A stretch of DNA of 54,444 bases, filler included, from Sphacelaria rigidula (Eukaryota): assembly GCA_964200075.2 (NCBI GenBank). It is 4 parts of 4 records of this genome, joined end to end, with 100 filler letters (N's around TTAATTAATTAA, not from the genome) between each part and the next. Parts side by side here need not be neighbours in the genome. Positions count along the whole stretch, not along the records: positions 27,278 to 40,811 come from CAXNAA020002822.1; 3 more parts are not named here. One strand, given 5' to 3'. Both the position numbers and the translations under genes were made by a program. A model generated the notes under the pieces. It was not told where the DNA came from. It did not search any database and saw only the letters and a program-made list of their open reading frames with translations. The stretch's first letter is position 1, and each line of letters starts with the position of its first letter. Below, in pieces: positions 1 through 54,444 of this stretch.

Positions 1-738
1 CTAGTGATGACACTGGAGTCTCGAGTTGCAGTGGCGCAGTTGGAGAGTGAAAGCAATAGGTTCACATACAGGTCGGGATGCGGGCGCGAACGTACAGTTC
101 AGGGCGGGGTCGAGATGCTGTCATGTATCACGATGCGGTGTTGTGATGGTGTGTATGCCGGGACCGTACGAAGCGATCTTGGGGTGGATGCCCATGATCT
201 CTCTTTCGACAGAGACATTGCCGCCTCATCTATGCTCGAACCGGATTGGAAAGCTCGACGGGCATTTGCAGTACGGTTGAGTCGTGCAGTAAATTATTCA
301 CGTTGTGCATCGGCCGTCAATTCTTCAGGACAGGGGACGCCCAGTCATCCGTTCGACTTATCGCTGCGTTGGCAGTGATATCCCCCCACCACGTCACTGA
401 CAGCACCTTGCTGACCTTACTGACAGCTTGACGCCCGAGATTATTGTCTGGACACGAGCTTCGAGACAAACAATAGTGAAAACATCGTCGACAACGAAAC
501 AAACGCTGTTATGCTCCGTCGCCCGCAGCTAACCACGGATGGGCGACATGTGCAACCACGGACGCACTTCCTACTCCTCCCAAAAATTGCGCATCAGCAG
601 CGTCGTGCGGTTCTCCTGAGGGCGTTTTGTCAGTCAACGGCTAGGGTCTTCAAACCTCATTTAATTGATGAACCTCATTTTATAGAATCCCCTGTTCTAT
701 GCACAAGATGCAATGATGTGTCCGAGAGATATGTGTTT

Positions 739-780
739 CACACACACACACATACACACACACACACATACACACACACA
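739..780. repeat. (CA)n microsatellite with two TA interruptions
   Basis: Direct reading of cacacacacacacatacacaca... over 42 bp. Confidence 0.95.
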
Positions 781-1746
781 AAGGTTCACGTGACCGATGA
801 TCAACAGACAAAATGAGCTCGAAGGCTTTATATCTTGTAATTTTCGCTTACTATTCTCTTGCTCGCCTAGCGTACTGTTCTCACCAAAGGTAAGCAGTAG
901 GAGCAGATGGTCCAGCTCGTAGGGCAGCTCAGCGAGTGAGCGAGGATGCATGGAACGCAACTATCTGACCTCGGCCCGAGAAGGCGTTTCATCTCCTCGG
1001 GGCTAGGGATACACCAGTCTGTACACCAACCTTCCCCAGAACTATGGGAGTATTCCCATGAACAGATCGAATGATCTGTTAGCCAACCTGCCCCAAAGTT
1101 GTCTGTAAGAACAAATCACGCTTCTCTATCTTCCTTTCTCATGACACTCACCCAGCCGTCGAACCTCTATTTGAGTTGCGATGAGATCTCAAGAGCAACT
1201 AAAATTGAGGCTTGTCTCACCCATCAAGTCATGAGGAGACAACGCGAAAACAATCAAGAGGGCAATGACCAGCCCGTGCCCGATCCTCCCACACCTCAAA
1301 CGAGAAAAACCAAAGGTGCCTCAAAAAGCGCAATGACGCAATTGCGGTTGACTGCGTAGTAGTACACAATGCTGCTGCGAGCTAGCGAACAGACGGAAAA
1401 AGCACACAATACTTTGACGCGCTAGCTGTATAGAAAGCAAATGAAAACCTCGCAAATGACATAGAGACAATCTCAAGCAGGAAACCAAAAACTTAAGGAC
1501 CCGAATAGGGTCGAGTGCTAGCCAGAGAAAGTGCTGGCAGCGTAGAGGCCAATGGAAGGGGGTGAAGGGGATCCAGAGGACGTCGTCGAAGGGGCCGATG
1601 AGGGCAGAGATGAGTCGCGATTGGAGAGCCATCGTAGGTGAAGCAGTGAAGAGGAGATCGTACCTGAGTCGGGACAAGGGAAGTACCAGAACCAAACTGG
1701 GAGGGGAGATAAAAATCGCGATAAAGGGAGTGCGAAGAGATAGGAC

Positions 1747-2330
1747 TCAAGATGGTGCATTGATGTGTGTACGATTGATATTGCGCAGAAGACCTCGTCG
1801 TAGGCCGTGTGACTTGAAGCGTCGTAGGCACCAGGAACCGCGGGGTGCGGAAGAGCTAGTCGTGTATAAATCGGGGCGAAGCTTGAGCTGGACGGGCCCA
1901 GGGTCGTCGAGGAAACGCACAATGTACGTGTCGGCCGCGAGGGCATCGACGGAGTGGATCTGACCTAGCCACCAGAGGTAATCACTGCCCTTATACTACA
2001 AATAGGCACCTTTAGGAAGCGGTTGTTGTTTTGCGCGAAGCTTTTCGTCCCATTGTTTTGTGGGTACGAGTTCGTAACCATCGGCTACAAAACGTAGTCC
2101 TTTGTCGCGGTGAAGTTCGCGGGGTGCAGCACCGCGTCTCATGTTGCGATATTCTTTGTTGTCAGCGAGCTGTTGCTGTGGGGATTGCGTCCAATAAAGG
2201 AGGATAGAAGGACGGTGCAGTTAAAGGTCGGACTCGCGTTCCCAAGACGCACGCCGAAGACCTTGCCAATGAGTCTTGTACATGACAGCAATTTTGCCGC
2301 CAGGAACTCGAGTGATTCGGTGGCCGGAAA
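1747..2330 (-). pseudogene. pol C-terminus: chromodomain-like segment followed by a Tudor/PWWP-like domain
   Basis: VSHISGHR...MYKTHWQGLRRASWERESDL, then in the same frame through two stops: LHRPSILLYW...KGAYL*YKGSDYLWWLGQIHSVDALAADTYIVRFLDDPGPVQLKLRPDLYTTSSSAPRGSWCL...APS* (manual translation). Confidence 0.6.
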
Positions 2331-3660
2331 TGTGGGACACGGCCAAGCGGAGAGGTTGTTCAGTCACGTCATCGGTGGTAACGTGGTACGGTGGAGATAT
2401 TGTGAAGTAGCTGTTGAGCACGTATTGAGTGAGAGCGGCAGGTAGGTATTGAGGCATGTCAGTAGTGTCATGCGGGTTCGTGCAAGGCTTGCAACGATGC
2501 ACAGAGACGCGAGATTTAGCGTCATGTCCCTGGAGGTCACGAGGTAAATCGAGGTAGAGGAGTTTGTCGCCAGCAGGCTTGCCGTCAGGAGATGTCGGCG
2601 AGGGTCCGACCATGAGAATCTTGAACGGACCCGCCCAATTGAGGGACAGTTTGATCTTCAAGACTGTTGCCTGGGCAGTGCAGTCAGCGCTTTGACGGAT
2701 GGTTGGCAAACTGTTGTAGATCCAGACCCAATCGCCGATTTTCCAAGTAGGGCGGTTGTACATCAAGTTGTAGAGCGCGGTATTGGATCTTTCAAGGCGC
2801 GAGGCGTTGATAGCGTGTTGTTCGCGCACCAAAGTGAAAGCCTTGCGCAGACGAGCCCTGGCGAGGTCATGGTGGTACAGCCGATCCTGTCCCAGACCTT
2901 GGTGACCATCGAAGGTATGTCTTTCGAAAACGGTGATGGGCAGACGAGGGTAGCGTCCAAGATGTAGCTCGTTGTACGAGAGGCCTGTTGCCGCGTTGAC
3001 AGAATTGTTGTAAGACAGCATGGCATGCGAGAGATGAAGGTCCCAGTCATTCTGGCGGTCGTTTACGACCATGGATAGCAATTGAGCCATAGTGTGGTTC
3101 ACACGTTCAGTTTCACCGTTACCGTTAGGGTGGTCGGCGCTCGTGGCAATTGGGCGAATGCCGAGGAGCTTGTACAAAGCATCCGACAGTTCGGAGCAAA
3201 ATTGTTGACCATTGTCGAAGAGGAGCCGTTTCGGGCAGCCATAGTGCTCAATATAGTCATGGACGAGAATGTCCGCCGTGCTGGCAGCAGTGAAATCGCT
3301 AGCAGTAACAGCGTACATAGCTGCGTGACGGCTGAAGCGATCGATGGAAAGCAGAGTGGAGGTACTACCACGGTCAGTGGTGGGTAAAAGGCCGTAGTAA
3401 TCAAACGATACGAAGTGATCAGGAGCGTTTGGAAGCTCCATAAAAATCACTGTCCATCGTATAGTCTGCCGAGAGGTTTTGCGAGCCTGACATTTGAAAC
3501 ATCGTCGGATCTAAAAAGGCGTGGATGCTTTCATGCCGATCCATCAATAAAAGCGTTCGAGGAGCGCTAACGTGCGCGTGACGCCTAAGTGGCAGGACAA
3601 ATCGGAGTGACAGCACTTCATGACCCACGGACGCATCGGATAGGGGCGTCATGACGCATA

Positions 3661-4103
3661 TCACACGGGGTCTTACAAATTGTGGATGGATCTTTTATTG
3701 GGGATGAGAAACCCGGATCATAAAAATCTTTGTACCCACACCAGATCTTCGAAACATAGTTCCATTTTTTCACCCACTGATAACTATTGACAACTGCCAC
3801 ACGCCATAGAAATTTGATTTCGATTACCGAAATGTTGGGGTCCTGGGTGAAAAACCAATTTTGGAAAATTTCGGGTATCCGAACGGACGCCAAAATGGTT
3901 CCGATTTGTTTTCCCCCTAGAACCCCAACATTTCGGTGATCGAAATCCAAATTTCTATGGCGTGTAGCAGTTGTCAATAGCTATCAGCAGGTGAAGAAAT
4001 GGAACCATAGTTCGAAGATTTGTTGTGGATACGAAGATTTTAATTCTCAGGGTTTCTCATGCCCAATCAAAGATCCATCCCCAAATTGTAAGATCGCGTG
4101 TTA
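3661..4103. mobile_element. Foldback-type MITE inserted just upstream of the integrase zinc finger
   Basis: Roughly 185-bp diverged inverted arms (CACACGGGGTCTTACAAATTGTGGATGGATCTTT... / ...AAAGATCCATCCCCAAATTGTAAGATCGCGTG); AT-richer than host; probable TA TSD; removal rejoins ...ATPAY|MRHDAPIR. Confidence 0.85.
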
Positions 4104-7100
4104 TATATGCCGGAGTGGCAGTTGTGACCGCGGCAACCGTGCCGAAATTGGAGTTGAATCGGCGAACAAGCATATGGACGTCGTCGTCAGCCGTGAAGAT
4201 AGTACCTTTGCGTGCAAGCTCAACCACTTCAGAGGCGGTGGGGGCGGATAGAGTGCCCGAGGGGGTCAGGATATCAGCCGGGAAAGGGGTGGGGCAGATA
4301 AGCCGTAAGTAGCGCATTGTCGCGCGACAGAGCTGTTCGTGTTGTTGGTTGCGAGCCCAATCGCGGTGAGAGTAGCTAGCGAGAAATTCTCGAAGTTGCC
4401 CTTCAGCCGGAGAGCCAACCAAACATGGTGGCTCAGGAAGGGGTGGCACAGGTGAGGAAGCAGGGGTGCCGACGTCAACGTTTTGATCCGGAAGCGGATC
4501 TGACGCATGCGTATCGCGAGTCAGAGGCGCAGGTGCGGGGAGGTTCCCAGAAGGCGGCGTGGGGGTAGCGCGAACTGGTGAACGTGATCGGCGCGTTGGG
4601 CGCACAAGGGGCGCGGACTTTGTCGGTACAACACTGGGTACGCGGCCGGTGGTAGTAGGTGTTGTACGGCCCGTGGGGGCACGAGGCGGCGGCGGCGACG
4701 CATTGCTAGAAGCGGCCAGCGGCAGTGGTGGTATGACGGCACGCGAAGAATTTGCACGAGCTGCCGACCGAGAACACGTATTGTCGCAGATGAGGTGAAC
4801 AGTTGGTGGTGGCGGCGCCAAGATGTTCGCGCGAGGGCCGAAACTGCGGAAGTCGGCAAAATCAGCAGCTGTGGGTGCTAAGCCATTCAAAACTGCATCA
4901 GGGGGCAGAGGGCGGGGGCCCCTCATGTGCAGGCCGGTTTCAGGGCATTGCAAGTTAAGCGCGTAGATGGGCGTAGAAAAACGCCGAATGGGGTAGACGC
5001 CTGGTTCGTCAAGTTCAGCCAAGCGGCAAGCGGGACTGAAATCTACCACTGTAGGGGGCAGAGGCAATCGCGAAAGAAGGTCAGCATTGCCGTTGGTTTT
5101 GCCCGGACGATGTTTAACAGTGTACTGGTAAGCAGTCAAGAACTCAAGCCACCGAAATACGTGGGGGTTATGTTCTCCAACCTTAGCGAGTTGTTCAAGA
5201 GCTCCGTGATCTGCATAGATGTGGAAAGGCACGTGGAACAAGTACTGTCGAAGCCGTTTAATAGCCCAAGTTATGACTTCGCCTTCTAGCTCGAGTAGAC
5301 TCCAGTTTACCTCGTTTGGGAAGGTTGCGCGGCTGATGTACAAAATAGGTCTGACAGAGTCATCCAGTTGAGGATGATTGAGAACGGCGCCGAACCCATC
5401 CGTGCTAGCATCGGTGCGTAGGTGGAAAAGATGTGAGCCGTCTTGTAGCGGCCGGTTTTTCGGTCAGCGTTTTGAGCAGTTCGCGGACGGTGGCTTCCAT
5501 TTCTTTAGTGAAGACAAACGGGACGTTTTTCTTCAATAAATTTGTGATGGGCCGGATCCGCGTGGACAAGTTGGGCAAAAATTTGCGATAATAAGAAAGT
5601 TCGCCCAACAGCGAGCGAAGCTGCGAAATATTGGTGGGCATGGGCATATCAGTCATAGCCTTGACTTTGTTCGTATCTGGGTGCAATCCAGCAGGAGAGA
5701 TAGAGTTTCCCAAAATATCCAATTCAGTCGCTCCGACTCGAGCTTTGGATGGAGACAATTTCAAGTCGTGTGTACGCAAGCGGGAGAGGAATTCCTGTAG
5801 AGTGCGAATCTGCGCCTTGGGGGAGGCGTCAAAAGCGATAGCATCGTCTAGATACATGATAACATGCTCGAGACCGTCAGTAACGCGTTGCATGAGGCAT
5901 TGAAAACAGCCAGGTGCGGTGGCAGCGCCTTGTGGCATACGACGCCATTCATAAAGCCCTGGAGATGTACAGAACGCTGTCAAGGGAGCTGTATCGGGGT
6001 GAATTGCGTTTTGGAAAAATCCAGATGCGAGATCGAAAATGCTGAATATTTTTCCTCCGCCGAGAGAGTCGAAGACGTCGTCGATGCGAGGTATAGGGAA
6101 TTTTCCTACGACAGTGACGCGATTCAGCCGTTTGTAATTCACGGTGATGCGTATGTTGCCATCTTTTTTGGGGACGACCATGAGGGGTAAGGCCCATGGC
6201 GAAGACGGGTGTTGAATCAGACCAGCTCCCAAGTATGCATCCAAAATAGCATTGACCTTTTTGGTGAAGAGGGGATTCGCTCGATATGGTCGAGATGAGA
6301 TTGGCGAAACGCCAGGTTGCAGGGTGATCTCGAATGGCAATGTTTACAATGCCCGAGATCCGTCTTGGATCTCTTCTGATATTCCAGGAGAACGTCTTGC
6401 AGCTCTTGCATTACGGCGGGCTCCCAGCCCGGACCATGTAGGTCAAAATGGATATCACGCAAATGAGGTGGATGTTGGTGCCAAATTTGCAGGAAGTGTT
6501 CCCGAGACTCGACTGATAAGCGTTGAAGCACTGCATCAGGAGGTTCAGCAGGTGGTCGGTCCGATTCCACCGCAGAAACCCGAGTCGGGGGTGAGGGGGA
6601 TAGATCAAAGTATGGCTCATCAACGCAGTGAACATAACCATCAGTCGGCGGTGTGGGACCAGGCGCCGGAGGGTCGGCTACATCCAGAGGAATGTGCGTA
6701 AGAGGATGTAGCATGGCCGGTGAGAGGCAGCAGCAGCTGTTCGCCGTCCGAGACAAAATGCTCAGTGATAGCGAGCGCGCCAACTTTAGGCAGCGATTCC
6801 GCAAGGTAGTGGCCGATGAGGGCGGGCATACCGTTGCGGCGAACAAGCAAAACTTCCAAGAGTTGAGGCCCGTCGGGAAGGGTGACGCCAGAACTGCCAT
6901 TGTACCGAAGGTGGTGAGCCGCTCCGGTAGCCTGCTCATTGTTTTTGTAGGCTAAGGCACCACTGAGGGTACCAAAGTGTTCTAGTTGGAGTTCTCCACG
7001 AAGCACCGACTGAGGCGATAATGGTGGGAGGGTGCGGTACGTACGTTGGTCGAACCGCATGTAGCTATCTCTGCCAAGAAGGAGAGCATGATGCATGGTG

Positions 7101-14240: not shown

Positions 14241-15490
14241 TGATTTTTTTTCCCCCCGCCGCGTTTTTCCGACTAAAAGATATTTCGACTGAGACACACA
14301 AGGTCTCCATCAATTGTTTGTTGTGGAGGAGAAGACAGAAGGCAGGGGGAAAGCTTGACAAGAGGATGACGGGAACTGAATTTTGTTCGTCGAAAGTTGA
14401 TACAAAAAAAGGAAAATGTCACCCCATCGTATCACACAGTTCCGCCGCCGCGACGTATCAGAGGCCCTCCAGAGCAAAGGCAACAGCTGCGTAATGCGTT
14501 CTACCGGGCTTCGTTCGGCGCTATGCTCCATAGTGGTAGCTTCTGCCTTGCAGGTAATGAGAAATTTACCTGATAACTACGCGATAGAGCCGTGTGAAAC
14601 CGTCAAACCGCCTGTCTGTGAACATGCGGTGGAGCGGTCAGGTCTGTGCTGCTGACCCATCCATGCTACTCTACCGTACCATACACTCACTATCGCTGTA
14701 TACAACTTGCCTATGCTGTGTAACAGGCATCCATTTCCCTCAATTGCGGTCCAGCCTCATCAACGAGCGGCGGTGTTTAGTTTTTTTTTATGTGGATTGA
14801 CACCCCTGGATGTTTAGCCGGGACGAAAGTACAGTAGGATACTCTGATGTCGACAGTCACATTGTTTGAAATTGCGGAACGGAACATGTGTCCGACAGGG
14901 AGCCGCGCTCCCACGTATTTTTGTCGATCATGTATCACGGTAGTAATGTGGTATTGGGAATACCACGGGCGCTGCGCTTGTACACTTGTCTAAAAAGTGC
15001 TTGCTGTTGCTCCAAAACAGACAACAGCCGTACACTGGAAGGGCTCAAGTTTTCATCAAGACAGTCGTTACTGTATTCATATTGCAAGTTCACGATCCTT
15101 GTTTGCAGCGTCGAGGAGGTTGCGCCTTCAACTTTCAGTTCTTGGTACGATACTCATACACTGTGCAGCACGTATATACAGCTCAAACTATGATGGTATG
15201 GCTCATCGATATTTTGTCCTGTTGAGACAGCAGTTTGGCTGGCAAGAGACTTCCCCCTGCACCTGGCTCTTCTCCAATGCTACTCAGAGTACCTACTGTC
15301 CCAACATATCTCGCTGCAGTCGTTGGCGGCGAAAACAAAAACGTGCCGCCGCTCGCCATCCGCGCTTTTGCAAGCACGATGGTCGCCACAGGGAACGGCC
15401 CTTGTGGACTTGCGGTTGCGTTATTTTACTGTGGTTGGGGCAGGCTTGGATGAAGGAAAAGCCACGAACCCCCACCCCCCCCTCGTCACA

Positions 15491-15588
15491 TTGCCTGGTC
15501 CGGCAAAAACCCGGCGTGCTCCGCCCCGGCTTTGTAGGGATGCGATACCAATGGTCATATAAGTACGGCACGCAAGATCATGAGTACA
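15491..15588 (+). mobile_element. ~98-bp non-autonomous retroposon homologous to the LINE 3' end
   Basis: Homologous to 53408-53500(-) and to the LINE end 37463-37540(-); ends TGAGTACA; TSD CCCCCTCGTCACA (15478-15490) / CCCCCCCGTCACA (15589-15601). Confidence 0.8.
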
Positions 15589-27277: not shown

Positions 27278-28414
27278 CGTCTACTTTGCGTCTGAGCGCT
27301 CCTTTTCCCCTTATTTCTATCATGTCTCTTACTTTTGTCTTGTACCCCGCGCCTTCACCTATGGACAGTATTTCGTCTTGGTTTCCTCTTATCTCCTTCC
27401 GTACTTTCTCGAATTCTCTATCCCACCTTATTCCAGCATGCCCTTCCGCACTTTTCTTCCATACAGCCCGATCAACTATAGCTGGCAATATCTTTCTCTG
27501 CATGTTCTTGACGCTATATTACCATCTCAATTTCCTCATGTCTTTGTTTCAAGTGAGTACATTCTCAATTCTGCTCTCAATGCTGTGTTGCTCGTCGTTT
27601 TCGAGCATCCAAGTATCTTCTTAGCTGCTGCCATCTGTACTGTCTCCAACTTCTTCACGGAGTTGACGTTCCCCTCCCATACTTCTCCGTCATATTCCAG
27701 TTTTGTTTCGATCACGTTCATCGGGATACATGTCTCAATCCTAGTGTCTAGATGCGAGTCTCTGAGGACCACGTCCATCCTTCCTATCTGTGCCTTACCC
27801 TTTTTTATTAGTTTGTTCATGTGTGCGCCCCAACAACAGTGTTTTGATATATTTACGCCAAGGTATGTATGCTGGTCTACGATCGGCAGTTTCTCTTCTA
27901 CCCACTTCCACTTGAACTCTACGGGGTTTTTCTTATCTTCGTTGCAGACGAGTACCGCGCATTTGTTAACGTTCGCTGTCATTCTCCATTTCCTAGTGTA
28001 TTCTAGCGCCTTGTCCATTCCTGGTGTTTCTGAAATCCCCAGAAAATCATCTGCGAACATCAAACCTGATACCATATCTTCACCCACCTTGACCCCTTGC
28101 TTTGCTGATTCTGTTGCTACCATCAAGTCATTAATGAATACCTTGAATGAAGTGGGTGATAACGTACATCCTTGTGCAACTCCTTGTAAGATATCGAAAT
28201 ATTTCGATATTTCCCCTCCTAGCATCATGGCACTCTTGGCACATTTTCTGTCATCCTCTTCACCACTCTCCAAATTTTCCCTCTGATCCCAGCTCCCCAT
28301 AAATTTTTCTACGACCCATTTCTCCATACCGTGTCATAAGCCTTTTGCACGTCCAGAAAGAAACAGTACGTTGTCAGCCCGGTGTCTTTCCTACCCTGAA
28401 TAATCTTACTTAGT

Positions 28415-28734
28415 GCGCCCCGGTGGTGTAATGGCCGACTGTCGCCATGAGGGTGGAGAGAACGCGGGTTCGATTCCCGATGCGTTGTGTTTTTTTCAGT
28501 GATGTTTGATTTCCACCGTGGAAAGCGTGAGAACGTGAGTAAACAACATGATCGACTGGGTTTGTGTGACGTGAGTTGACGCGGTGCGGGAGTGATGGTC
28601 GTGATCCAATCCGCGAGACCAAAACGAAAGGCGCGTATCGAGGAGAGGATGGGTTGATCCCTTGAGACCACGGACTCATCCCGAGGAAGGGGAGGGGTTC
28701 AAAATGTGACGAAGAAAGAAAATAAGAAGAACAA
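28415..28734 (+). mobile_element. SINE family A, full-length, inserted in the LINE RT
   Basis: GCGCCCCGGTGGTGTAATGG (A-box), GGTTCGATTCC (B-box), A-rich tail; direct repeat AGTGCG at 28412-28417 and 28735-28740; empty site visible in LINE copy 2 near 39435. Confidence 0.92.
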
Positions 28735-28865
28735 AGTGCGTACACATGGTCTACGCAACTACGGTTTGGTCTAAATCCTGCTTGTCTCTCGCTGATTTCG
28801 TCGTCCTTTTTCAGTATCGTTCCTACTCTTTCGTTCATAATCTTACAGAATGTTTTTCCCGCTCA

Positions 28866-29346
28866 GGCCGGATGTTATGGCAAACAGATTTTAGGCCCAC
28901 AGATTGTTCACTTTTTGGACGTTGGCTCACTTTTTGATCCCTAAACAGGGAGAACCGCCAACACACGTCTCGGACACTTTGCATCACCCCACAGAGAGGA
29001 GCCTAGTCTGCTTTTCAGATTCGCTTGGCTCCGAGGTTTCGAGGGTGGCCGCTGAACAAAAACTCGAGTACAAACATCTGTTCTTGCCGACCCCCGCCAG
29101 TTCGGCCAATAATCTGTGGAGATCGCCGCAGATTTTGTTGCACACGGATTTTTGTTCAGCGGCCGCTCTCGAAATCTTGGAGCCAAGCGAATCTGATTAG
29201 TGGGCTAGGCTCCTCTCTGTACGGTGATGTAAAGTGTCCAAGACGTGTGTTGGCGATGTTCCCTGTTTGGGGGTCAAAAAGTGGCTCAAACGCCATAAAA
29301 GTGAACAATCCGTGGGCCAAATATCTGTGTGCCATAACATCCGGCC
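28866..29346. mobile_element. PIF/Harbinger-like (Tourist-type) foldback MITE
   Basis: Ends GGCCGGATGTTATGGCA / TGCCATAACATCCGGCC, arms about 210 bp, 3-bp TSD TCA; related segment at ~41465-41545. Confidence 0.88.
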
Positions 29347-30154
29347 TCAGTAGCGTTATCACTCTATAGTTTCTGGGGCCAGCCTTGTCTCCTTTTTTGA
29401 AAATATTGACAACCACCCCTTCTCTCTACCTCTTGGGTGTGTACTCGTTTTCTCAGATCCAGTTGTACAGCATAGCCATCATGGTAATCATTCCTTCTCC
29501 CCCGTACTTTAGAAATTCATTCGCTATTCCGTCTGCCCCTGCTGCGTTTCTGTTCTTGAGTGTAGCTACGCACTCCTTTCATCTCTGGTGAACTCTCTCT
29601 GCAATACTTTCGAGTCAATACCCTCCCGTTTCGACGAATCTACATTTGCTTCTGCCCACTCGTTGATCTCTTTCTCGAATTCCGTGTCGAACTTCGTGTG
29701 AGGTTTTGGTGTTCCTAGTCTACGGTAGTGCTCGACTAGCATTTCTCTCTTCCCCTTCGAACTACTGACCATTTTACCGTTCTGTGCCCGCAGTGTGGCT
29801 ATCCCGTTGTCTATCTTTCCTACCTGGTTTCTCGTTATTTCTTCTATCCCTGCCCACATTTGTTTCATCCCGCTATCGAAATCTTCATTTTGTTTTTTCA
29901 CTACACCTTCCCATCCTCCTTTTTTTTCATTTCGTACCATCTGTTTTACTTATTTTCGAGCTTTCGTACACTCCTCCCATCCTCCCGGAGGTTCACTCGA
30001 CATTCATCTTGCGTGGGCCCCTCTCCTTACTCTCATGGCCTCCTTTAATTCCTGATCCCACCATTTCACTGCTCTGTTGCATACGATCAGTTTCCTACCA
30101 ATGACTTCACTCGCCGCGTTCTTGACCATCTACTCCCATCCTTCTACAATCTCC

Positions 30155-31865
30155 CAGGGTTGTGTTCTGTAAGGTACGGGTACGTTCTGTAGGGTATGGT
30201 ATTCCTTACAGAACTTACAGAACTGTCGGGTACCGGTATAAACGTCTTACAGAATTACAGAACTTGTCGGGTACGGTATGGGAGGCTTAGAGAAAACTGA
30301 TACCGGCAATCGGGGAACTCTTCCAGGGTACACCCGCCCCTCGGGTAAGGGTAAACGTTTTGTACAGAAATTACAGAACTGTCGGGTAAGGGTATGGGAG
30401 GCTTACCGAACTCACAGAAACTGTCGGGTAAGGGTATGGGGGTTGCACAGAAAACCGTACCCGCAACCGGGTATATTATCAAGAGCATACCCGTGCCCCC
30501 CCGGTAAGGGTACGGGAGGCATACAGAACTCACAGAACTATTGGGTACGGGAATGAAAATCTTACAGATATTACAGATCTGTCGGGTACCGGTTTGAAAA
30601 TCTCGCAGAGTTTACAGAACTGTTGGGTACGGTAAACACCCGGCAAAATACCCCGGGTATAGAGAAAACCGTATCCCAGAAAACACGATCTTGGAATTAT
30701 CATCACCCCTGTGGTGGGACCTGCGACACTCAAACAGTGGCGAAATACAGATGATAGCTCACGAAAACTCTGAACAACTTCACGAGGTTCATAGAGAAAG
30801 GCGACACGAATAATCGCAGTAGTACATGTGCACGGGATCTTCAACATCTGTCCGCTTCACGTACACTCCCAGACAGTACATGAAAGAGCATTCACGGCTG
30901 CCCGCTCTCTGGAAGCCCTTTGGCACGCGACAAAATCGCCGGACGACTTTCTGTGGCAGCTCATACTCTGTCCTGTACATGTCGATAACGGTCTGGGATT
31001 TGATGACCACGACACAACTACCATCAACGTCGATGACATGCGTCTTGCTCCTTGAACCTCTAGTGGCGCAGATGAACCGTCTCCGCTCGAGCCATCACTC
31101 GAGTCTGGGGGTGATCCATCCTGACGGTCTCCACGGCTGCTCATGTTTCGTGTTTCCACTCAGCGGTACCTTGTATCCCGTCAGATCCTAAACTAAAGAA
31201 CGTTTCAACATTGAATCGTTGTTGGTGTGCAGTTTTGAATGAAGGAGTTGAGTGGGTTGATCGATGGGAGGTACATGTTCAGGTCATGAGGTTGTGTTTG
31301 GAGTGAACCTATATCCGTGCCTCTCCAAGGTATATACCTGTGCTCATACCTGCACTCGGGTATATCTATACGCAGGGGTATACTCTAACCCCGGGTAGGG
31401 GTATGGAGGCTTACAGAGCTCACAGAACTGTCGGGTACCGGTACTGAATAAAGTCTTACAGGAATTACAGAACTTGTCGAGTACGGTATGGGAGGCTTAC
31501 AGAAAACCGATACCGGCAATCGGGTATTTTTTCAAGGGCATACCCGCTCTCCGGGTACGGGTAAACATTCTGTACAGAGCTCGCAGAACTGTCGGGTAAG
31601 GGTATGGGAGGCTTATAGAACACACATAAACTGTGAGATAGGGTATGGAGGTCGCATAGAAAACCGTACCTGTGCTCCACGGTAACGGTACGGGAGTCTT
31701 ACAGATATTACAGAACTATCGGGTAAGGGTATGAAAGTCTTACAGAGTTTACAGATGTCAGGTACCGGTATGTCTTACAGAAGTCACAGAACTGTCCGGT
31801 ACGGTAAATACCCGGCAAAATACCCCGGGTATACAGAAAACCGTACCCTACAGAACACAACCTTG
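30155..31865 (-). mobile_element. Non-autonomous hAT-like element with dense subterminal repeats
   Basis: TIR CAGGGTTGTGTTCTGTAAGGTACGG / CCGTACCCTACAGAACACAACCTTG; 8-bp TSD CAATCTCC / CAATCTTC; many TTACAGAACTGTCGGGTA-like motifs. Confidence 0.88.
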
Positions 31866-32649
31866 CAATCTTCGCCCCTACCCGATTTCTTTCCATTTCG
31901 GTATCAACTGTTTCTATGCGCTTCAGTAGCTTGGAAAATTTCACTGCATTTTGGGCTATCTCCTCTTGAAACTCTTGACGTTTTTCTTCCTTATCTAGTT
32001 TATCGATTCTCCATTTGTACAACTTCCTTCCCCGCTTATTCCTTTTAGCTCTCGTCTGTTGGCTTTCTGACCATATTAGGCAGTGATCTGTGGTTCCCAC
32101 ATCCTCCGCGCATGCATGTACTTCCTTTTCTTCACTACTTCCATGCTTTACCACTATATAGTCAAGAACGGAGCATTCTCTCTCGTCTCTGCGGTTTGTA
32201 GCCCATGTCCATTGCGCCTCTGGCTGAAATACTCTATCGTTCAGCGTTTTCATCTCGTTATTCTCAAGGAACTTGAGCATTTCTACCCCATTCCTGTTCT
32301 TCTTGTCTTCCAGAGGTCTTCCGAGGTCTGAGGGGGGGACGGAGTACCCATTTTTCGATGGGGGGAGGTACCCCTTCATGTCACAGATAATGAAGATAGA
32401 AGGAAATGTGGACAGGGATAACATGGTGGGTGTCCCGACATGACGCGGGATCCCATAGTATACAGCAATACGAGGTTGGCAACCTACCGCGCTACGCCAC
32501 CACTGCACGTGCGTACTGTATTGCACCGTCATGACCATAATGATCGTCATGAACGTACAGCACAGTACAGTACAGCAGGTGGCAGGAGTACGTTGAGGAG
32601 CATCTATCGTACCTCGGGGCCAAAAATCTATTCCTCCTCTGTACGGGGA

Positions 32650-33001: not shown

Positions 33002-34314
33002 TCTCGTGGCGCTGTCTCACTAGACAGATTGACAGACGTTGCACAGTGGCTGTGAAGCTCACTTGCGACTTGCAGCGAAACAGAAGAAAATTCGGATGGT
33101 GTTCGGTGGCGCTTTTCGGCCAAACCAGAATCAAACACACAGCCTCTTCTTCACGCAGAGAACTGGAGGAAATCTGGCTTAGCTGGGAGAGTGAACGCGG
33201 TGGGCGATCGAGATCGAACCAAAGCGCTCTCACTTTCTGGAACAAAAACCAATTTTGCACACGTACGTCAAACCAAACTGTATCATCCGGTTCAGCTGCT
33301 GCTGCTGCTGACGCTGTAGTCGTGCCAGCTTTTACACTAGATCTACTGTAGTTTACGTGGCCTCGGTACTCTGCTATAGTATCTTACTGCGACAAATCAT
33401 GGCAACACGTCTACTCCAGCAAATATCCTGCTTCATACGTCACTCAGACAAACGTACTACATTCCCAGAAAATATACTCAGTGGAAAGGATACAAGGTTC
33501 ATGACTTCATTGAACCGTCACAACTTGTATCACTATCTTGCTATAAAGACTTCAGCCAGACACGAAGAACCTAGACTCCATAATCTAAATTTGCAACACC
33601 CTCTCGTGAATGAAGTGTCGTTAGCAAAGCAAGACGATGTATTCTTCACGCAAAGTGCAGTAAGCACGGCAATCGAATTAAAATATACATATCGTACTCT
33701 TGTACCACTCTTCTGTTGTACTGCATCTTCACTTCTTAAAAACAGCCAATCCGAGCTGGTGACAGATGAAATTTGAATCCACACGCACACGCACACCCAC
33801 ATATATATATATATATATACATACGCGTATGCGCTGCTTGGATGGCATGAGATTTCATGTGCCCTGCAGAAAGGAAGAACAAAAGTAATGTGCAAAGAAA
33901 TCAACCTGCAAGGTTTCGCGAATCATACAAAAACAAGTGACATCGAATGTTTCGACGCTTGCAAAAGCGAAGAACAAAAAAAACCGTGCTCAGAAATGAA
34001 CCTGAAAATTGCCGCGAGATTTTCACACGAACTGTCGATTTCACACATTTGATTCGACACGAGAGTTGAAGCATAGAGGTCGTTGCATGCACTGTCTTTA
34101 CAGCGCGTTCCCCGAAACTTATATCGCATCATACGTTCTTGGTAAGAACCAAGACAAAGAGGAATCATGTGCATGGTGCATGGCACAGGTGGTTTACTGC
34201 GTCCTACAGTGGACGTCAATCATGTGCGCAGGTAGCTTACACCTGTTTCCTTCCAACATGCTCGTGAAACCAAAATATTCTTAGGCTCCCTGTGATTGCG
34301 TCGGGGTCCCTGTA

Positions 34315-34790
34315 TTATAACGTCGGGCTATACGGTAGAGAAACCAACCTATTTGTATGAAGTCTCTCTAACAGTGACAGTGCGTCATGGACTCTTCTCG
34401 ACATGAAATACTCAAATTCTTCTGGATGCTCCCTATACCAGGCGTTCCGTAGAAAATTGAAGACCCCAAGGTCTATGAAAAAAAAGCACATCCGTATTAG
34501 GATATACAGCTGCGTTGAGCTCGTCATGACATCTAGAATAGTTGGATATTCGATGCTTTCCATGAATCCATACGTTCTTAAATGGTTCGCCATCGTTGCT
34601 CGTACATCCCGTGATTGTCTGGGTACCACGAGGTCCAGTACGAGGTGTGCCCTGCTCCCCAAGTCAATATATGTGTTCGCCACATCCCGGATGATCCTTC
34701 TGGGATGGAAACGCGTTCTTGATGTGAAGACGACGACAGCAAATACAACTTCAAGTACAACATATGGTGTTTCATAATACTTATAGCTCC
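34315..34790 (-). other. Orphan open frame (~160 codons), possible exon or gene relic
   Basis: Stop-free frame extends upstream of the called GTG (YKYYETPYVVLEVVFAVVVF...NAWYREHPEEFEYFMSRRVHDALSLLERL); protein-like composition but no recognised family. Confidence 0.3.
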
Positions 34791-35162
34791 TCGCTGAAGT
34801 ATTTTACCATGACTCCATCAACCCCTTCCTATACGGGACCGATCTGAAGCCTGGTCCATGTCACTACTCTAGCACTTACCGTTTATCTTGCAGGGGTGGG
34901 GTAGGGCTTCAGTAGGTGAGATCCCTCGGTAAAACCCACAATTTTCGAAGGCCGTCAGCGAATCATTTGTGAAGGAAGGATGACGCACCATGGCGCGGCA
35001 ACATGAAGGAGACTCGCCCTTCGACCTACGGCGATCCCAACGGGAGGCTCGTTACCTTCGACTGCGGCCGCTGGAAGGCCGCTGGAAGGCCTCGAGTCGG
35101 ATCGCTGGAGGCCTATATCTGCCCGTCACGAACGACACGCAATTATTACGTGACAACAACAT

Positions 35163-35503
35163 GCCGCGCCCCGGCGGTCTGACGGTACAGCTGACATCAT
35201 ACACAACGGGGGAAACGCGGGCTCGCTTCCCGCCAGAAGCGTCTAGTTTGGGATCTTTCTCACACGTACGACACTAGTATATGATTTCCGTGGTTGATAG
35301 CATTAGGACGTGAGTAGCAACAAATATTTATTCGGCTGAGTTTGTTACACGTTACACGGCAGTCGACGCGGTGCGGGAGGGCTGATCCAGTTCGTGATAT
35401 CAAATTATAAGGCGTGCACCGGGGGAGCGATGAGTTGATTCCTTGAGACCACGGACTCGTCCCGCGGGAGGGGAGGAGTGAGAAATGAGGAGGAAAAAAC
35501 AAC
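35163..35503 (+). mobile_element. SINE family A, diverged full-length copy
   Basis: GCCGCGCCCCGGCGG head, decayed A/B boxes, GACGCGGTGCGGGAG and GTTGATTCCTTGAGACCACGGACTC body, A-rich tail. Confidence 0.85.
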
Positions 35504-38501
35504 TAGTACGTAGTTACGGCATCGCCTTTGATACTGACTCCAGTGTAGAAACCGTTACACCCAGCGAGCAATGATATCCACAGTAGTCAAAGCTGCAGAA
35601 GCAACCCATTGGCTTGCTTAGATACGTCGGTAGAGTGCGGATGGTAATAGGAGCGCCGTATATGCTCCAAGTCAACCGGTTTTTTCCACCGCTATACCGC
35701 ATTGTGCTTGATTGTATTTGCGGGCAGTGCAGTGCACCGGTTCATGTTTAGCAAATATAATAGAGTCAGCGTCGGGTAAATACTGCGCAGTATTTGTAGC
35801 CTTCACAACTCACCAGTGCTAGATGAAATATCATAGATTGAGAAGAAGCCTATCGCAGGTGTTGCACAGAGAACTAAAAGCAGGCACGAAAAGGGCCCCG
35901 TAGTCTTACCACCCATCACCCGATGCGCTCGTGTCAACCGTGCCATCCACGCAGCACGAAAGTCGTGCTGGTTAGCCCAACACTACCCCCACACATCTGT
36001 CATGATCTTTTCGGTCGGCAAACTGTTCTGAAATCTGAAATGACTACGGCTTGAGGACTGATGTTGGAAACTCCGGCGCTACTGGTGATTATTTTGAGCA
36101 TCACTGCCGAGCAAAAAATATGGACGGCAACATCTCAATAAATCCGAGAGGCTTCGATCGTGGCTTTAGGCCACTAGGTGGCGATAATAACCCCCCGCCG
36201 ACACCAACTCAACAGGAGCAACAACACCAACATGGAGGCCGTGTGTTTCAAACCTTGAGCGCCCCTAGTACCGTCGGCACACAAGCGTGTTCAGCTGGGG
36301 TGGAGGGGTTGAAGAGGCGACGGCGGTTGCCTGGACCTTTGGCGTTTTTCCAGCAAGGCGAAACAGGAACAGCACCCGGGTGGGTACATCTACTTCGTAG
36401 TTTGATGCGAATCTATCGTGCAGAGTAAGTCTAGGTGACGGAATATAACACCCCCATGTGATGAAGTTTTCAAAAATTACGAAGTCAGTTTTGTTGAAAA
36501 GCGAGACCGCACGTCCTGAAAGTGTCTCATGTCTTGAGAAGGAGTCATACAAGGGTTTTTGCAGCAGTGACGTTGTCATACTAATTTCGAGAACAGCCGA
36601 AGACGAAAAATAGATATCATCGAGAGATGGGGGTGAGTGGAACAGGGGTCGTACACTCCGTCACCTCCTCTCAGATATGGGGTTACGTTGTAATAGAGAG
36701 TTTCAGCAAACAAAGAATCGATTGAGGGATAACAATCAGAGTCAGGGATGAGAGTCCGGATCAGGGACAAGGCTGGGATATGCCCCTATGAAAGCCTGCG
36801 ACAAAAAAGTTAGACTCTGGGTTCAGGGTTTGAAAGCCAAAAATCCAGCCCTGACCGGGAACCCTGAGCGTTAAAACGGCTGAAAAGTTGCTGCTCAGAG
36901 TCACGTTCATTGAAGAGAAATAGCAACGCCGATCGATGCGAGACCTTATAAGAGCACAGCTATACGGTAGAGGTCATTGGAGGGGGTGATAGCCGAAGCT
37001 GTCAGCATAGATGGTGGCGTGTTATCGTCCGTGCAAGTTGAGGTAGATTTCGTCTTAAGTAGGCGCGAACGGGGAGAGGGCGCTACCCGAAATGACAAGT
37101 TGCAGTGGAGCTGATACTAGCTTCGGCAGGTGTGCCGCAGCAGCGTATCATGCAGCACCAAGACAACTTATTGTATTGTGATGTAGGACAGCGTCACATG
37201 AGTCCGGAGGCAGCGCAGAGTATGTTCTTTCAGCTAAACCAAGAGTTGCTCGTACGGTCCGCACAACCCTCTCTACTAATTGGCCGGGGAGGGGGGGGGT
37301 CACCCAGCTGAAATCATTTTTCTGAAACCGTTTCTTATGGGCACTCTCCTGGGACAAGAAATCTTCGAGACCGAACCGGGGTGGCGCATCAGTTCCTGCA
37401 CTCCAACAAGAATTTTTTTATACGCCCAAATTTGGCGCAGAGGGCGGGGATTGAGGGGGGGGTACTCGTTTGTTGCTTGCCTTATTAATGGTCGATTGAC
37501 AGGTGACCACGCATCCCTTTCGAGACGGAGCACCGTTCTTACTCCTGGTAGAGACACTTCCAACATTTGGGCGCTCATCACGCTTCTTCCATACACTACA
37601 CATAACCTTCTACATTTCTTTCCTTCGTCTTGTTTCACCGTCTGTGACCACCATCTATCTCCTAGTCCTAGTATAGCGATCGTTTTTTCGCTACTGTCCC
37701 ATGCGTCAAACGATTTCACGCCACCTTTGTTTACTTCCCGCATTTCCCCCTTTGGCACGTCCCGTTTCTTCTTGTATAATTCACACTCTGTCACTAAATG
37801 GGTTAAAGTCTCTATTGCTTCGCCACATGGGCAATTCCGCGCATCTACTTCCTTTTCCTCTCGACCACTGGTATGTATTCCTCTTGCTTCTCTCTGGTAG
37901 GTCCAGGCCCCCCACCCGAAATCGCCGTTTCAATTTTTTCACGGAGTCCATTGGGCCATGCAGATGTGTTTTCATCCCTATCCCCTCTCTCAAACCCCCA
38001 TATGTCTTCAGGTTATCTTCCTCGTCTACTTTTCGCCTTAGCGCTTCTTTCCCCCATGATTCTATCATGTCTCTTACCTCTGTCTTGTACCCCCTACATT
38101 CACCTAGCGACATTACCTCGTCTTGGTTTCCTCCTGTGTCCTTCGATAATTTCTTAACTGCGCCATCCCACCTCATTCCAGCACGCCCTTACATCTTTTT
38201 CTTCCATACAGTCCACAGTCCTATCAACTATGACCGGCAATGTCTTGCTTACGCGTGTTCCTTACGCTATGTTGCCATTTCATTTTTGTCATGTCTTCGT
38301 TCGTGTTGAGTGCGTACAATCCCAATTCTGTTCTCAATGTTGTATTACTCGTCGTTTTTGAGCATCTAAGTATTTTTTTAGCTGCACTGATCTGTACTGT
38401 TTCCAGCGTCTTTACCAACTTCACGTTTCCCTCCCGTACTTCTCCTTCACATCCCAGATTTGGTACAATCACGTTCATCAGGATACATTTGTTAATCCTA
38501 G

Positions 38502-38760
38502 CACATGTCGGACAGATCATGATCCGTTTGAAAATTACTTCTTCTCAGTATACTGATCCGGATCATGATCCAGATCATCTGACCCTACTTTTCCAGGTTT
38601 GTTCCTTACCGCGCCGGACGCCGAGCACGCCGAGTGGCGCAAAGGTTGTGCTTTGGTGTTTCTGACTCCGCGGTCACATATTTTTTGTTTTTTTACCAAC
38701 GGATTCGAGACTTTTCCTTGATTGGTTGTTTTGTACGGATCATGATCTGTCCGACGTGTG
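38502..38760. mobile_element. hAT-type MITE
   Basis: 26-bp TIR CACA(T/C)GTCGGACAGATCATGATCCGT; perfect 8-bp TSD AATCCTAG (38494-38501, 38761-38768). Confidence 0.92.
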
Positions 38761-39545
38761 AATCCTAGTATCTAGGTGCGAGTCTCTAAGGATCACGCCC
38801 ACCTTGTCTATCTGTGCCTTACCCTTTTCTATTACTTCATTAATGTGTTTTTTCCAAGAACAGTCTTTTGAGATCTCTACGCCAAGGTATATATACTGGT
38901 CTACGATCGGCAGTTCCTCTTTTGCCCACTTGCATTCGAACTCTACCGGATTCTCCTTATGTTCGGTACACACAAGTACCGCGCATTTGTTTACGATCGC
39001 CGTCACTCTCCATTTCTAGTGTGTTCGAGGACCTTTTCGTGCTCCTGTAATGCTTTTGGTGTTTCTGATATCCACACGAAATCATCCGTGAATATCAATT
39101 CCGATACCGTATCTTACCCCACCTTGAGTTCTTGCTGTGCTAATTTTATTGCTAGTATCACGTCATGAATAGAGACGTCAGGTCAAGTGGGTCAGAACGT
39201 GCGTCATTGTGCAACTCCTTGTGAAATATCAAAATAAGGTGGTATTTCCTCGTCTAGCACCATAACACTTTTTGCACATTCTGTCATGTTCACCATTCTC
39301 CACATTTTCCCTCTGATCCCAGTTCCCCACATCTTATCCCACAACCCATTTCTCCATATTGTCATAGACATTTTGTTCGTCTAGGAAGAAACAATACGTT
39401 GTTAGCCCGGCATCTTTCCTACCTTGAATAATCTTACCTAATGTGTAACCATGGTCTACGCAACTACGGTTTGGTCTAAACCCTGCTTGCCCCTCGCTAC
39501 TTTTCTTAATTCTCCAGCATCGTTCCCACTCTACCGTTCAGAATA

Positions 39546-40079
39546 TGGTATTCAGCATCAGAAGTCTTCAGGTTTGTTTTAGGAATGTACTCGCGTGCTA
39601 CTCTTCGATAGAACTCACAAGTGCTAGCGTTGGTAGATTTTGGTAAAATGAACAGAATCATCCGCAAAACACAGTGATAGTGATACTTGGTGTTATCGGG
39701 CGATACGAGTAGATACCCCGTTTATCAGGAGGGTGTTATTGACCGTGAAACGCAGTTTTTCGGCTCTAGTGCAATGAATAGGTAGACTTTCAAAAAATAA
39801 TCCTGTTAATTTCGTCAAAAATACGATCGGAAAAAGGCTCGATCGATCGAAAGTACCGAAGTGTCAGAATCTGGGCTGAAACGTGGCAGGACCCCCGATG
39901 ACCGGTCAGCCCGTAAGTCACTCAATGTTGAGCACAAATGATTTTTTTCCCTTGGCATATGCAGCGGATACGAGTATCTTCAGATCCCTAATGTGATGAG
40001 CGGTGGCAAGCGAAAGAGCCCAAGAAAATCGCCAATTACGAACAAATGACAAAATGAAAAGTTCAGACGCTAACTACTA
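39546..40079. mobile_element. Tc1/mariner-like MITE (same family as 45191-45739)
   Basis: Interrupts LINE copy 2 with a TA duplication; decayed TIRs; interior collinear with 45191-45739. Confidence 0.8.
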
Positions 40080-40694
40080 TATTGCAGAGTGTTTCCCCTA
40101 CTGTGCTCAGTAGCGTAATCCCTTCATGATTCCCTGGGCCAGCCGTGTCTCCTTTCTTGGGAAGGTTGACCACAACAGTATTCCTTCTCTCCACCTTTTG
40201 GGTGCGCACTCGATTTCTCATATCCTTCAATTATAGAGGATAACCACCATGGTGATCATTTCGTCTCCATTATTTAGAAGTTTATTCTCTTTCGTTTGCC
40301 CCTGCTGCCTTTCTCTTCTCGAGTTTAGCTACTCCCTCCTTACTGCCGCTCATGTGAAATTTCTCTGCGATTATTCTGAGCCACTGTCTTCCCGCTTTGA
40401 TGCCTCTACATGTGCCTCGGCCCAAGCGTTGACTCCTTTCTCGAATTCCGCGTCGAACCTCTCGTTATTTGTTGGTGCCGCTAGTTTTCTATGATGCTCT
40501 ACTAGCACTTCGCTCTTCGACTTACCAACAACTTTCCTGCTCTGGGCCCGTAGTACGGCTATCCCCTTGTCTATCTTTCCTGCGTAGGTTCCCCTTAATT
40601 TTTTTGTGCCTACCCACAGTTGCTACTTATATTATCCCCGTCCTGTTTCGCCGTCTGTGGCTAACATCTATCTCCTAGTATAACTGCATAACTG

Positions 40695-40811
40695 CCGCGC
40701 CCCGGTGGTGTAATGGTCCGACTGTCGCCATTAGGATGGAGAGAACGAGGGTTTGATTCCCGATCCGTTGCGTTTTTTCTTCGTAATATCTGATTTCCAC
40801 CGTGGAAAGCG
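40695..40811 (+). mobile_element. SINE family A, 5' part, cut by contig end
   Basis: Closely similar to 28415-28527. Confidence 0.9.
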
Positions 40812-40911: not shown

Positions 40912-41884
40912 GTTCGGCGAGTCGCATGAAGGGTGAGCTGCATCCTGCTAAGATTGTTCGGCCCGAAGCCTACTGATTATCTTATACAATATAGCACGTA
41001 GTGTTGAGCTAGCCGCGTGTCAGACTCGTCCTCGTGATTTCTTCGTAGGTCATACGATCACACAGCCCGAGTCAGACTGGTCGTTTTTTCATGGATAACT
41101 CGCGGAACCCAATCCTGAGTCGTTCTCATTTTCTCAAAAGACTGGTCGGACACGAGTTATCGTATGTCATGGTTCCTTGGACGTGTGCAAAGATCACACG
41201 GGTCGGACGAATGAATGATTCGTCTGATATTACCTGATTTTAGTGTGATTGATTTGTACCGTACTAATCGATCCTCGACCTTTGTTTTCAGCGTTGCAAC
41301 CCAGGTACGCGCAGCCCAGGCACGCGGAATGGCGCAGAAGTTGCGTGAGAACCTTCTTGACCATCGGTCGGCTTTTTTTCCCTCTTTCGAGCAATCAGAC
41401 CCGAGAAATCGTGGATTTGGTTATTCGAACCGGCGATGACTCGTCCGAACCGTGAAGATTACCGCATCGGCAAGCAGAGATTTTTGCGCACGAATTTTGT
41501 TCAGCGGCTGATGTCGAAACTTCGGAGCCAAACGAATCTGTTTTCGCACGTACCACAACAGCTTTGATGTGACGATGGAGTTCCAACAATGATATTATTC
41601 CGAATGGAGTCATGGCAGCCAAGGGAGTGCTACGTGTGTGTAGTACAGAAAGTACAACGCACCTGGTGGGAGTGTGGGACTCGTGCATGCGGATACCACC
41701 GACCTAGCGGGTAATCTCACACTGAGCAGACGTCAACCTGTTTCATCGTCCCACCATAGCTACCATACGTGGCAGAATCGCCGGCACATTTCTCCTGAAG
41801 AATATTTGGGCACGTGCTGTACTCGAACTATCTTAGTATAGTACGGCACTAGACTCTTTTTTTCCGCACTCTATTGGCGCACGA

Positions 41885-53407: not shown

Positions 53408-53500
53408 TGTACTCATGATCATGCATGACATAGTCATGAGACCGTTGACCTCGCATCCCTACAAAGCCGGAACGGAGCATGCCGGGTTTTCGCCGGACCA
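53408..53500 (-). mobile_element. ~93-bp non-autonomous retroposon homologous to the LINE 3' end (second copy)
   Basis: Reverse complement aligns with 15496-15588; ends TGAGTACA-C7; TSD CCCCCGCTCTGGCC (53501-53514) versus CCCCCCC(GC)4GCTCTGGCC (53384-53407). Confidence 0.8.
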
Positions 53501-54444
53501 GGCCAGAGCGGGGGTGACAGCTACAATCCGGCGGGGAGATTGTTCTCACCTCGCTCGTATTTGTACCCGATGCAGCCGTAATCAGCGCATGCGGTATTTC
53601 TGCTGCTGCTGGCACTGGAATTAGGAAAATACTATCGGCGGGAGCGCAATATTGTCGTGTCAAAGCATGCATCTCAGTTTGTTCGAGCACAGTAGTCTAA
53701 CACGTCAGGACGTGGGCGGGCGGACGGATGATGTTTTAGAAGGCAATTCGTGAGCTAATCTTGTACATTCTTATGCTTTATTTTTGGTTTATGAGGTAGA
53801 AGAATAGTCCGATACGAACGACACGGGGAAATAATAGGCGACGACGGCTGGAACCTCTTTTTGCAGTGCTTCGTTTCTCGCTATGCCGGGGTTGGTGTCG
53901 GATTGATTCAAGTCGGGGTTTTGGCGGTTTGGAGATTTCCGGGATGGGCATTAGCGGCAGCTTCTTCTTACGGGCATGCTGAACGTTTTCATGTGGCTCA
54001 CCGTCGATGACGTGCTGCACTGTAAGTATTTGTGTTTCGTGCTGCAGAAGAAAATTGTCGCTCCGTTTGCTCCCTCCTTTTTTTCTCTGTGTTTTGCTTC
54101 CGTGAATGTTTTCGCGCGATACAGCTTTGTGTGTGCGGGCGCGATTTAAGTATGCATGCAGTAAATGCCGTGGTCTCAGATGTTTCGTTGAAATTTTGGT
54201 TTGCTGTCGTGACGAATCTTCTGTATATGTGTTTTGTGTGGGAACGCTCTCATGCGAGTGCCCGTTATTGTCGTTAAGTCATGCTACGATAGGGGCGCGC
54301 GTGGAGGAGGGTATTGTCGTTGAGTGATGCTACGTCATGGGCGGGGCGGGGCGGCGGGGGGGGGGGGGGAGGGGTGGTTTCCCGAAAAGACAGGGAGCAC
54401 CAAGGGGGGGTCGGGGGGCCTAGTCGCAGCGAGGGGCGCCGGTG

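Follow-up and report, generated by a model that had tools for sequence, protein, structure and literature searches.

How can a long interspersed nuclear element (LINE) that closes in a run of C, with no A-tail behind it, be copied into new sites? The question is raised by a stretch of DNA from the brown alga Sphacelaria rigidula (GenBank assembly GCA_964200075.2), 54,444 nt long and referred to here as the window, which consists of four contigs (1-13541, 13642-27177, 27278-40811 and 40912-54444) joined via N/TTAATTAATTAA spacers and has a G+C content of ~50%. Two LINE copies lie in it, together with two short elements (sh1 and sh2) whose terminal sequence is homologous to the LINE tail. To our knowledge, the tails of LINEs are nearly always A-rich or made of short A/T-rich repeats. 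The best explanation of the ends described below, with a probability of roughly 0.55, is that the LINE and a short element dependent on it carry a (C)n tail and insert by target-primed reverse transcription at nicks that offer a primer ending in G.

A run of C at every readable 3' end

LINE copy 2 occupies 37463..40811 on the minus strand, where tblastn aligns it with residues 580-1360 of the database protein P0004, an intact relative. The copy is degenerate, with frameshifts and stops, and its 5' part is lost at the contig end. Its 3' end reads ...AAGGCAAGCAACAAACGAGTA (...CGAGTA) and passes without an A-tail into C8 at 37455..37462 (minus strand; G8 on the plus strand), which forms its (C)n tail or junction. 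An earlier note on this window had described the copy as closing in oligo(C), lacking an A-tail and having next to no 3' untranslated region (UTR), and this is borne out by the C8 run and by a stop codon only 5 nt away from it in relatives; the C count given there is one too many if the end is read as GAGTAC plus C7.

Five related proteins were aligned and the alignment run against metagenome contigs, which yielded four related loci (L001-L004), three of which include the 3' end. L001 (89% protein identity) ends in ...AAATGAGTACG followed by C8, L002 (78%) in ...AAATGAGTACG followed by C10, and L003 (52%) in ...ACTTGAGTACG followed by C10. Tabulation of the bases after GAGTAC(A), as proposed in the earlier note, gave C7-C10 directly after GAGTAC(A/G/-) in all six readable 3' ends, namely those of LINE copy 2, sh1, sh2 and L001-L003. 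Left out of this count were L004, LINE copy 1 of the window (end off the contig) and a short element in L003 whose tail runs off its contig. Further copies were sought by motif and protein scans of viral contigs and by a motif scan of genome contigs, which gave chance matches only; these were rejected as members of the family, since they are genes of bacteria or viruses that show no homology in the surroundings of the motif.

The two short non-autonomous elements extend over 15493..15588 (sh1, plus strand) and 53408..53503 (sh2, minus strand; GCCTGGTCC...GAGTACA), and both terminate in GAGTACA plus C7 (15582-15595 on the plus strand for sh1, 53401-53414 on the minus strand for sh2). Likeness between the two amounts to 85% over 104 nt, and an alignment places their final ~65 nt on the tail of the LINE; TGA is kept in the short elements. 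A hidden Markov model (HMM) of this tail was built solely from the external sequences of L001-L003, avoiding circularity. Over the window it matched the LINE tail at E 2.7e-19, sh2 at 2.6e-9 and sh1 at 1.4e-7, the two short elements spanning model positions 26-90, with no other match below E = 3. The claim that two short elements ending in GAGTACA-C7 are homologous to the LINE therefore holds with a model that contains neither of them. A seven-sequence profile search of the window found no further decayed copies.

From these alignments, the short element, ~100-120 nt long and very abundant, appears to have borrowed the last ~65 nt of the LINE. Rfam reported no family above threshold anywhere in the window, and in the short element it recognised no head of the RNA polymerase III (Pol III) type (tRNA, 5S, 7SL, snRNA). 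For this reason it is called here a LINE-dependent non-autonomous element and not a canonical short interspersed nuclear element (SINE). About 80 nt from the end of sh2, opposed runs surround a 6-nt spacer (G9-TTACAA-C8, 53298-53320).

Of the four independent C-run junctions claimed in the earlier note, three stand, on three different contigs, and the fourth is not a junction. It had been placed at a supposed 5' truncation of LINE copy 1 (27278..32397, minus strand; residues 314-1180 of P0004), beside C7 at 30496-30502. According to tblastn with P0004, copy 1 consists of two pieces, 27279-30150 (residues 484-1180) and 31867-32397 (residues 314-484), split by an unrelated insert of ~1.7 kb; because the LINE resumes at 31867-32397, the C7 lies within this foreign insert, and in element orientation it is a G run. 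The 3' end of copy 1 is lost at the contig start (27278), hence no junction is visible there. The insert itself (30151-31866) contains diverged units of ~40 nt, GGTACGGGTA...TTACAGAAC, recurring at 30188-30697 and 31462-31869. LINE copy 2 likewise holds an unrelated insert (~39567-40056), a repeat of ~490 nt found again with 82% identity at 45212-45706 on contig 4; as nothing in it matches the LINE protein, it is taken to be another mobile element inserted in copy 2.

An open reading frame that reaches the end of the element

Judged by its domains, the LINE is a retrotransposon without long terminal repeats (non-LTR), of the apurinic/apyrimidinic endonuclease (APE) type, with a non-LTR reverse transcriptase (RT) and the APE domain N-terminal to it. 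The layout is that of one long open reading frame (ORF): an N-terminal extension, the APE endonuclease, the RT and a C-terminal Cys/His motif. Exo_endo_phos is matched at residues 170-392 of P0004 and 142-383 of P0002, and RVT_1 in P0004 at E 9.8e-31. Within the window, RVT_1 is recognised in LINE copy 1 at E 2.1e-07, and the RT piece of this copy shares 72% identity with full-length proteins of marine assemblies; the APE part is absent or decayed in the window copies, the domain being seen in relatives.

The nearest solved structures in the PDB are L1 ORF2p and R2, and a protein atlas together with the PDB supports the assignment 'non-LTR RT with APE' only, without a clade. The lengths of the family proteins (1328-1412 aa) and their C-terminal Cys/His motif are not decisive for membership in RTE or RTE-X. 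Placement in the L1 clade does not fit the (C)n tail of all six ends or the single ORF of 1412 aa in L002.

Intact ORFs are present in L002 (1412 aa, 463..4701) and L001 (1242 aa, 43..3771), and both close with the TGA of TGAGTACG, 5 nt ahead of the C run; there is therefore essentially no 3' UTR. The database proteins P0001-P0004 and P0006 end in ...ASNK at this stop position, and the more distant P0005 ends in ...KACKT, like L003. In LINE copy 2 the former stop codon (37466-37468) reads CGA where intact relatives have TGA, so the frame reads on. The conserved 3'-terminal module of this copy, ~72 nt at 37463..37534 on the minus strand, codes for the last ~23 residues (...NGAPSRKGCVV..KASNK).

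Since the ORF reaches within 5 nt of the element's end, the cis signal for the RT should lie in the last ~25 codons. Over the terminal 87 nt, the DNA of L002 and L003 is 83% identical, and ~690 nt of upstream coding sequence remain unaligned by blastn. A LINE terminus that is conserved in this way and copied by the short elements would be consistent with a cis-acting role.

Runs of G8-G10 occur inside the ORF on the LINE sense strand (L001:315-324, L002:925-932, L004:313-322), and C runs are nearly confined to the tail. The corresponding C runs of the opposite strand might receive insertions of this very family.

Abundance and genome-wide ends of the short element

Contigs from four sequencing runs (X1, X3, X4 and X5, of ten for the sh1 locus) were aligned to 15200-15900 at a likeness of at least 80%. 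The short element was found on 17954, 9999, 13821 and 3820 contigs, respectively. The unique flanks of sh1 had depths of 62, 12, 28 and 0 in the same order, and the summed depth of the element reached up to 1.7e7, a sum over contigs that is not a copy number. The short element is clearly among the commonest repeats of this alga.

Loose 3' ends of the aligned contigs cluster at 15595, the position of the final C in the sh1 run (204, 134, 201 and 51 contigs in X1, X3, X4 and X5). Their consensus adds a further 16-19 C at an agreement of 0.38-0.44, so that C runs longer than 7 are usual genome-wide. No A-rich 3' end of the short element appeared among the matches listed, beyond which there are 786 more.

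Loose 5' ends cluster at 15493 (702, 536, 628 and 214 contigs). Their 30-letter consensus comprises a conserved head of 15-16 nt and, before it, 11-14 positions where C is in most cases the commonest base (agreement 0.48-0.51). This commoner head had no match in the window at up to 3 mismatches and is absent from the related loci too. Head-to-tail joints, which lead from 15593/4 to 15493/4 (back 100-102 nt) with 5-27 mostly C-rich letters between, were also recovered, 12 being listed and 187 more existing. In L003, a short element follows directly on the C10 of the LINE.

Tail, target or both

C runs are present on the 5' side of the short elements as well. They lie 0-13 nt upstream in all three for which this side can be read: C8 in sh1 (15475..15482, plus strand, 10 nt from the 5' end), C5 in sh2 (G5 at 53510-53514 on the plus strand, 6 nt) and the C10 of L003. 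For a site picked at random in the window, the probability that a run of at least five C lies within 22 nt upstream is 0.017. Such upstream runs are what priming from a nick ending in G predicts.

Words that recur on both sides after the C runs outline candidate duplications of 11-16 nt, the C run first. In sh1, the 3' C7 (15589..15595, plus strand) is followed by GTCACA (15596-15601), which occurs again at 15485-15490, so that the candidate 5' copy would consist of the C run, TC and GTCACA. In sh2, the 3' C7 (53401..53407, minus strand; G7 on the plus strand) is followed by (GC)4 and GCTCTGGCC (53384-53400), and the 5' flank (53504..53514, minus strand) holds C5 and GCTCTG, the shared word being GCTCTG(GCC).

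Such flanks could be read as the work of a strictly (C)n-specific LINE comparable to Waldo, Mino, Kibi, Koshi and Dong, the RNA of which would end at GAGTAC(R), the C's being pre-existing and duplicated on insertion. The C runs that flank sh1 (C8 and C7) and sh2 (C5 and C7) on either side, tandem pairs with C-rich linkers and the L003 short element placed directly after the LINE C10 all agree with this. Against it, 3' runs are longer than 5' runs, and the window holds 7 C and 11 G runs of at least 7 in 54 kb, set against an element present on thousands of contigs; targets of this kind would then have to be largely made by the elements themselves. A further objection comes from L002. After its C10 stands TTATCA, a word with one further occurrence in the 462 nt that precede the ORF, at 24-29 and behind CC, and the resulting candidate duplication, CCTTATCA at 22-29, would have CC in the 5' copy and C10 at the 3' end. 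If the candidate is genuine, at least eight C's were added to a target that had two. A purely pre-existing target is, on balance, improbable.

Because the candidate 5' copy of L002 has CC and genome-wide 3' runs exceed 7, the C run behaves at least partly as the element's own tail and not purely as an oligo(C) target. The idea of oligo(C) as target, put forward in the earlier note, is thus retained in part: C runs do lie on both sides of sh1 and sh2, but the long 3' runs, the CC of L002 and the loss of one junction limit it. The accompanying proposal, a nick at oligo(dG) with priming on a C-rich RNA, gains from the three upstream C runs and from the plurality of C in the 5' flanks, and is weakened by the same CC.

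At the other extreme, the (C)n might be nothing but a tail, derived from the RNA or added by the RT to the nick ahead of templated synthesis, with no preference for C/G runs at all. Upstream C runs would then reflect insertion beside older copies or template jumps onto the C end of another RNA. This would account for a C run that varies between 7 and 10 in six copies, for a genome-wide consensus extended by 16-19 C and so longer than the C5 and C8 of the 5' flanks, for the L002 candidate and for the existence of head-to-tail pairs. It is hard to reconcile with a C run at most 13 nt upstream in three of three short elements (chance 0.017 per site). Moreover, the sequence preceding the upstream C run in sh1 and sh2 is no element tail, and the loose ends, upstream of the head, have C as their most frequent base in stretches that do not align to the element. 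A tail without any target preference is accordingly unlikely, if somewhat less so than a target without a tail.

The reading preferred here, a C-tailed element primed from G-ended nicks, has a number of observations to answer, gathered in this paragraph. The GTCACA match in sh1 is weak, since any 6-mer is common to two random 25-mers with P ~0.08. The candidate duplications of sh1 and sh2 each line up only if a small indel is allowed between C run and match; that of sh2 (C run plus GCTCTGGCC) is short and has a weak P, and the test made on it omitted the last 3 nt of the match. In L002, the two C's of the 5' copy contrast with the C10 at the 3' end, and the 5' boundary on which this candidate rests lacks an independent definition; among random stretches of 462 nt, 8.5% contain TTATCA alone and 0/20,000 contain CCTTATCA. 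The agreement of the loose-end consensus is just 0.38-0.51, so that a flank called C-rich here has C as the plurality base and should not be taken for a fixed run. No empty site was found, as no joint in the contigs of X1, X3, X4 and X5 skips sh1, and X4, a different sample, carries the element. A conserved RNA fold in the tail was not detected either: single-sequence z values range from -0.92 to +1.66, with no thermodynamic sign, and RNAalifold gives -6.5 kcal/mol, 1 pair of 20 being compensatory, with little covariation. A small hairpin after GCUCC, with differing stems in L001/L002, L003 and the short elements, is a mere lead on which no fold is claimed. Finally, homopolymer runs of at least 7 are ~4-fold over a first-order Markov expectation in the window, both for C/G (18 vs 3.8 expected) and for A/T (39 vs 9.6).

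The same enrichment is the one point in favour of chance or artefact, that is, of common C runs behind three unrelated ends or of assembly errors. Such a coincidence is highly improbable and is refuted by the ends of L001-L003, by the count of six in six, which draws on at least four independent assemblies, and by the contigs of four sequencing runs, in which three or four samples and hundreds of contigs show the C run; the run also stands at a constant distance from the stop codon.

The longest homopolymers of the window are C15 (18707), G15 (13256), G14 (54356) and C10 (49645). C/G runs were considered as relics of the LINE family and rejected, the sequences upstream of them having no common motif and A/T runs being equally enriched; as the C/G excess is matched by A/T runs, it is not a signature of the family.

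A possible route of insertion

Under the C-tail and G-primer explanation, the C tract would be carried in the RNA, most simply through read-through transcription of the source copy. The endonuclease would nick the bottom strand at a 3'-OH ending in G's, these G's would pair with the RNA C tract, and reverse transcription would begin inside the tract, where slippage may give rise to variable length. The second strand would then be cleaved a few to ~15 nt downstream, leaving duplications that start with C's. Old tails could in turn become new targets, by which the head-to-tail pairs would be explained.

Polyadenylation cannot make a C tail, and the element must therefore define the 3' end of its RNA and its priming site otherwise. 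The fuller proposal, a poly(C)-tail retroposition independent of polyadenylation in which the RT starts on RNA oligo(C) from a G-ended nick, the 3' signal is wholly coding and targets are self-made, is tentative, its odds being placed somewhat short of even.

Comparison with known retrotransposons

L1-type LINEs combine a poly(A) tail with a T-rich nick site (5'-TTTT/A) and dependent SINEs, and the system in Sphacelaria may be viewed as their C/G counterpart, with C-tail and G-ended primer in place of A-tail and T-ended primer. Both possess APE and RT, the RT being nearest to L1 ORF2p among solved structures, and both have a variable homopolymer tail. Duplications that start with the tail's own letter, as the candidates are read here, and a dependent short element at very high copy number are further points of likeness. 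Unlike L1, the algal LINE has a C tail and not an A tail, no 3' UTR, and one ORF instead of two; and unlike SINEs that depend on L1, its partner shares more than a tail with the LINE, the ~65 nt in common recalling 'stringent' pairs.

Stringent LINE/SINE pairs with simple-repeat tails include eel UnaL2/UnaSINE1, CR1 and L2, in which reverse transcription is thought to start on the repeat with slippage. As in these pairs, the short element holds the 3'-terminal sequence of the LINE and then a short repeat. It differs in that the repeat unit is a single C, the common module is coding, no significant stem-loop was found and no Pol III head is recognised.

APE-type LINEs that insert into microsatellites are a third point of reference, among them Waldo (ACAY), Mino (AC), Kibi (TC), Koshi (TTC) and Dong (TAA) (PMC3812793). 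The short elements seen here would resemble them in being bordered on both sides by the same simple repeat and in a tail equal to the target repeat. They depart from them in that mononucleotide C/G is absent from the families as listed in PMC3812793, and in a specificity that looks loose, given the CC of L002.

Among brown algae, the LINEs of Ectocarpus have been assigned to CRE, RTE, RTE-X and unknown groups, with abundant non-autonomous partners that have common 3' ends, for example RTEX-N1_Ec32 (PMC12477816). As far as that account goes, the likeness lies in a brown-algal host and in abundant partners having the LINE 3' end, and the difference in size, the partner named there being ~600 bp and the present one ~100-120 nt. 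Because the window LINE protein is 69-71% identical to gene models of Ectocarpus sp. CCAP 1310/34, a relative is almost certainly contained in the Ectocarpus library of that study. In its main text, searches turned up neither terminal C runs nor LINE insertion sites, and its Supplementary Material 3 or Fig. 1C may record a (C)n end (PMC12477816). No description of a C-tailed LINE was found among the titles listed by full-text literature searches, the Ectocarpus family notes and the terminal-motif figure lying outside this search.

Other features of the window

A telomere-like sequence, TAGGGTTAGGGTTAGGGTAGGGTAA, is found at ~50790-50822 with C7 directly after it and could be an interstitial telomeric repeat beside a C run. 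The Pol region of a Gypsy-type LTR retrotransposon covers 2221-6340 on the minus strand (RVT_1 5405-6340, RT_RNaseH 4057-5343), with its integrase core at 2221-3450 below the Pfam cut-off. Three inverted-repeat pairs (43902-44261, 3658-4106 and 28912-29299), with arms of ~160 nt that are 94%, 86% and 82% complementary and 36-131 nt between them, are probably miniature inverted-repeat transposable element (MITE)-like or foldback elements. At 12169-12464, a 63-nt unit is repeated four times in tandem inside overlapping ORFs of both strands.

Significance for the family and for brown-algal genomes

This LINE and its dependent element, with a (C)n tail and without a 3' UTR, represent an unusual form of an insertion mechanism that is otherwise well known. 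As the stop codon lies 5 nt away from the end, the recognition signal would fall wholly within the ORF, a compact double constraint under which the same nucleotides serve as protein code and as cis signal. At the level of the genome, the short element seeds C/G homopolymers throughout, which bears on annotation, assembly breaks and mutation hot spots in brown-algal genomes. If the proposed route is true, self-created targets would account for the very high copy number of the short element in this brown alga.

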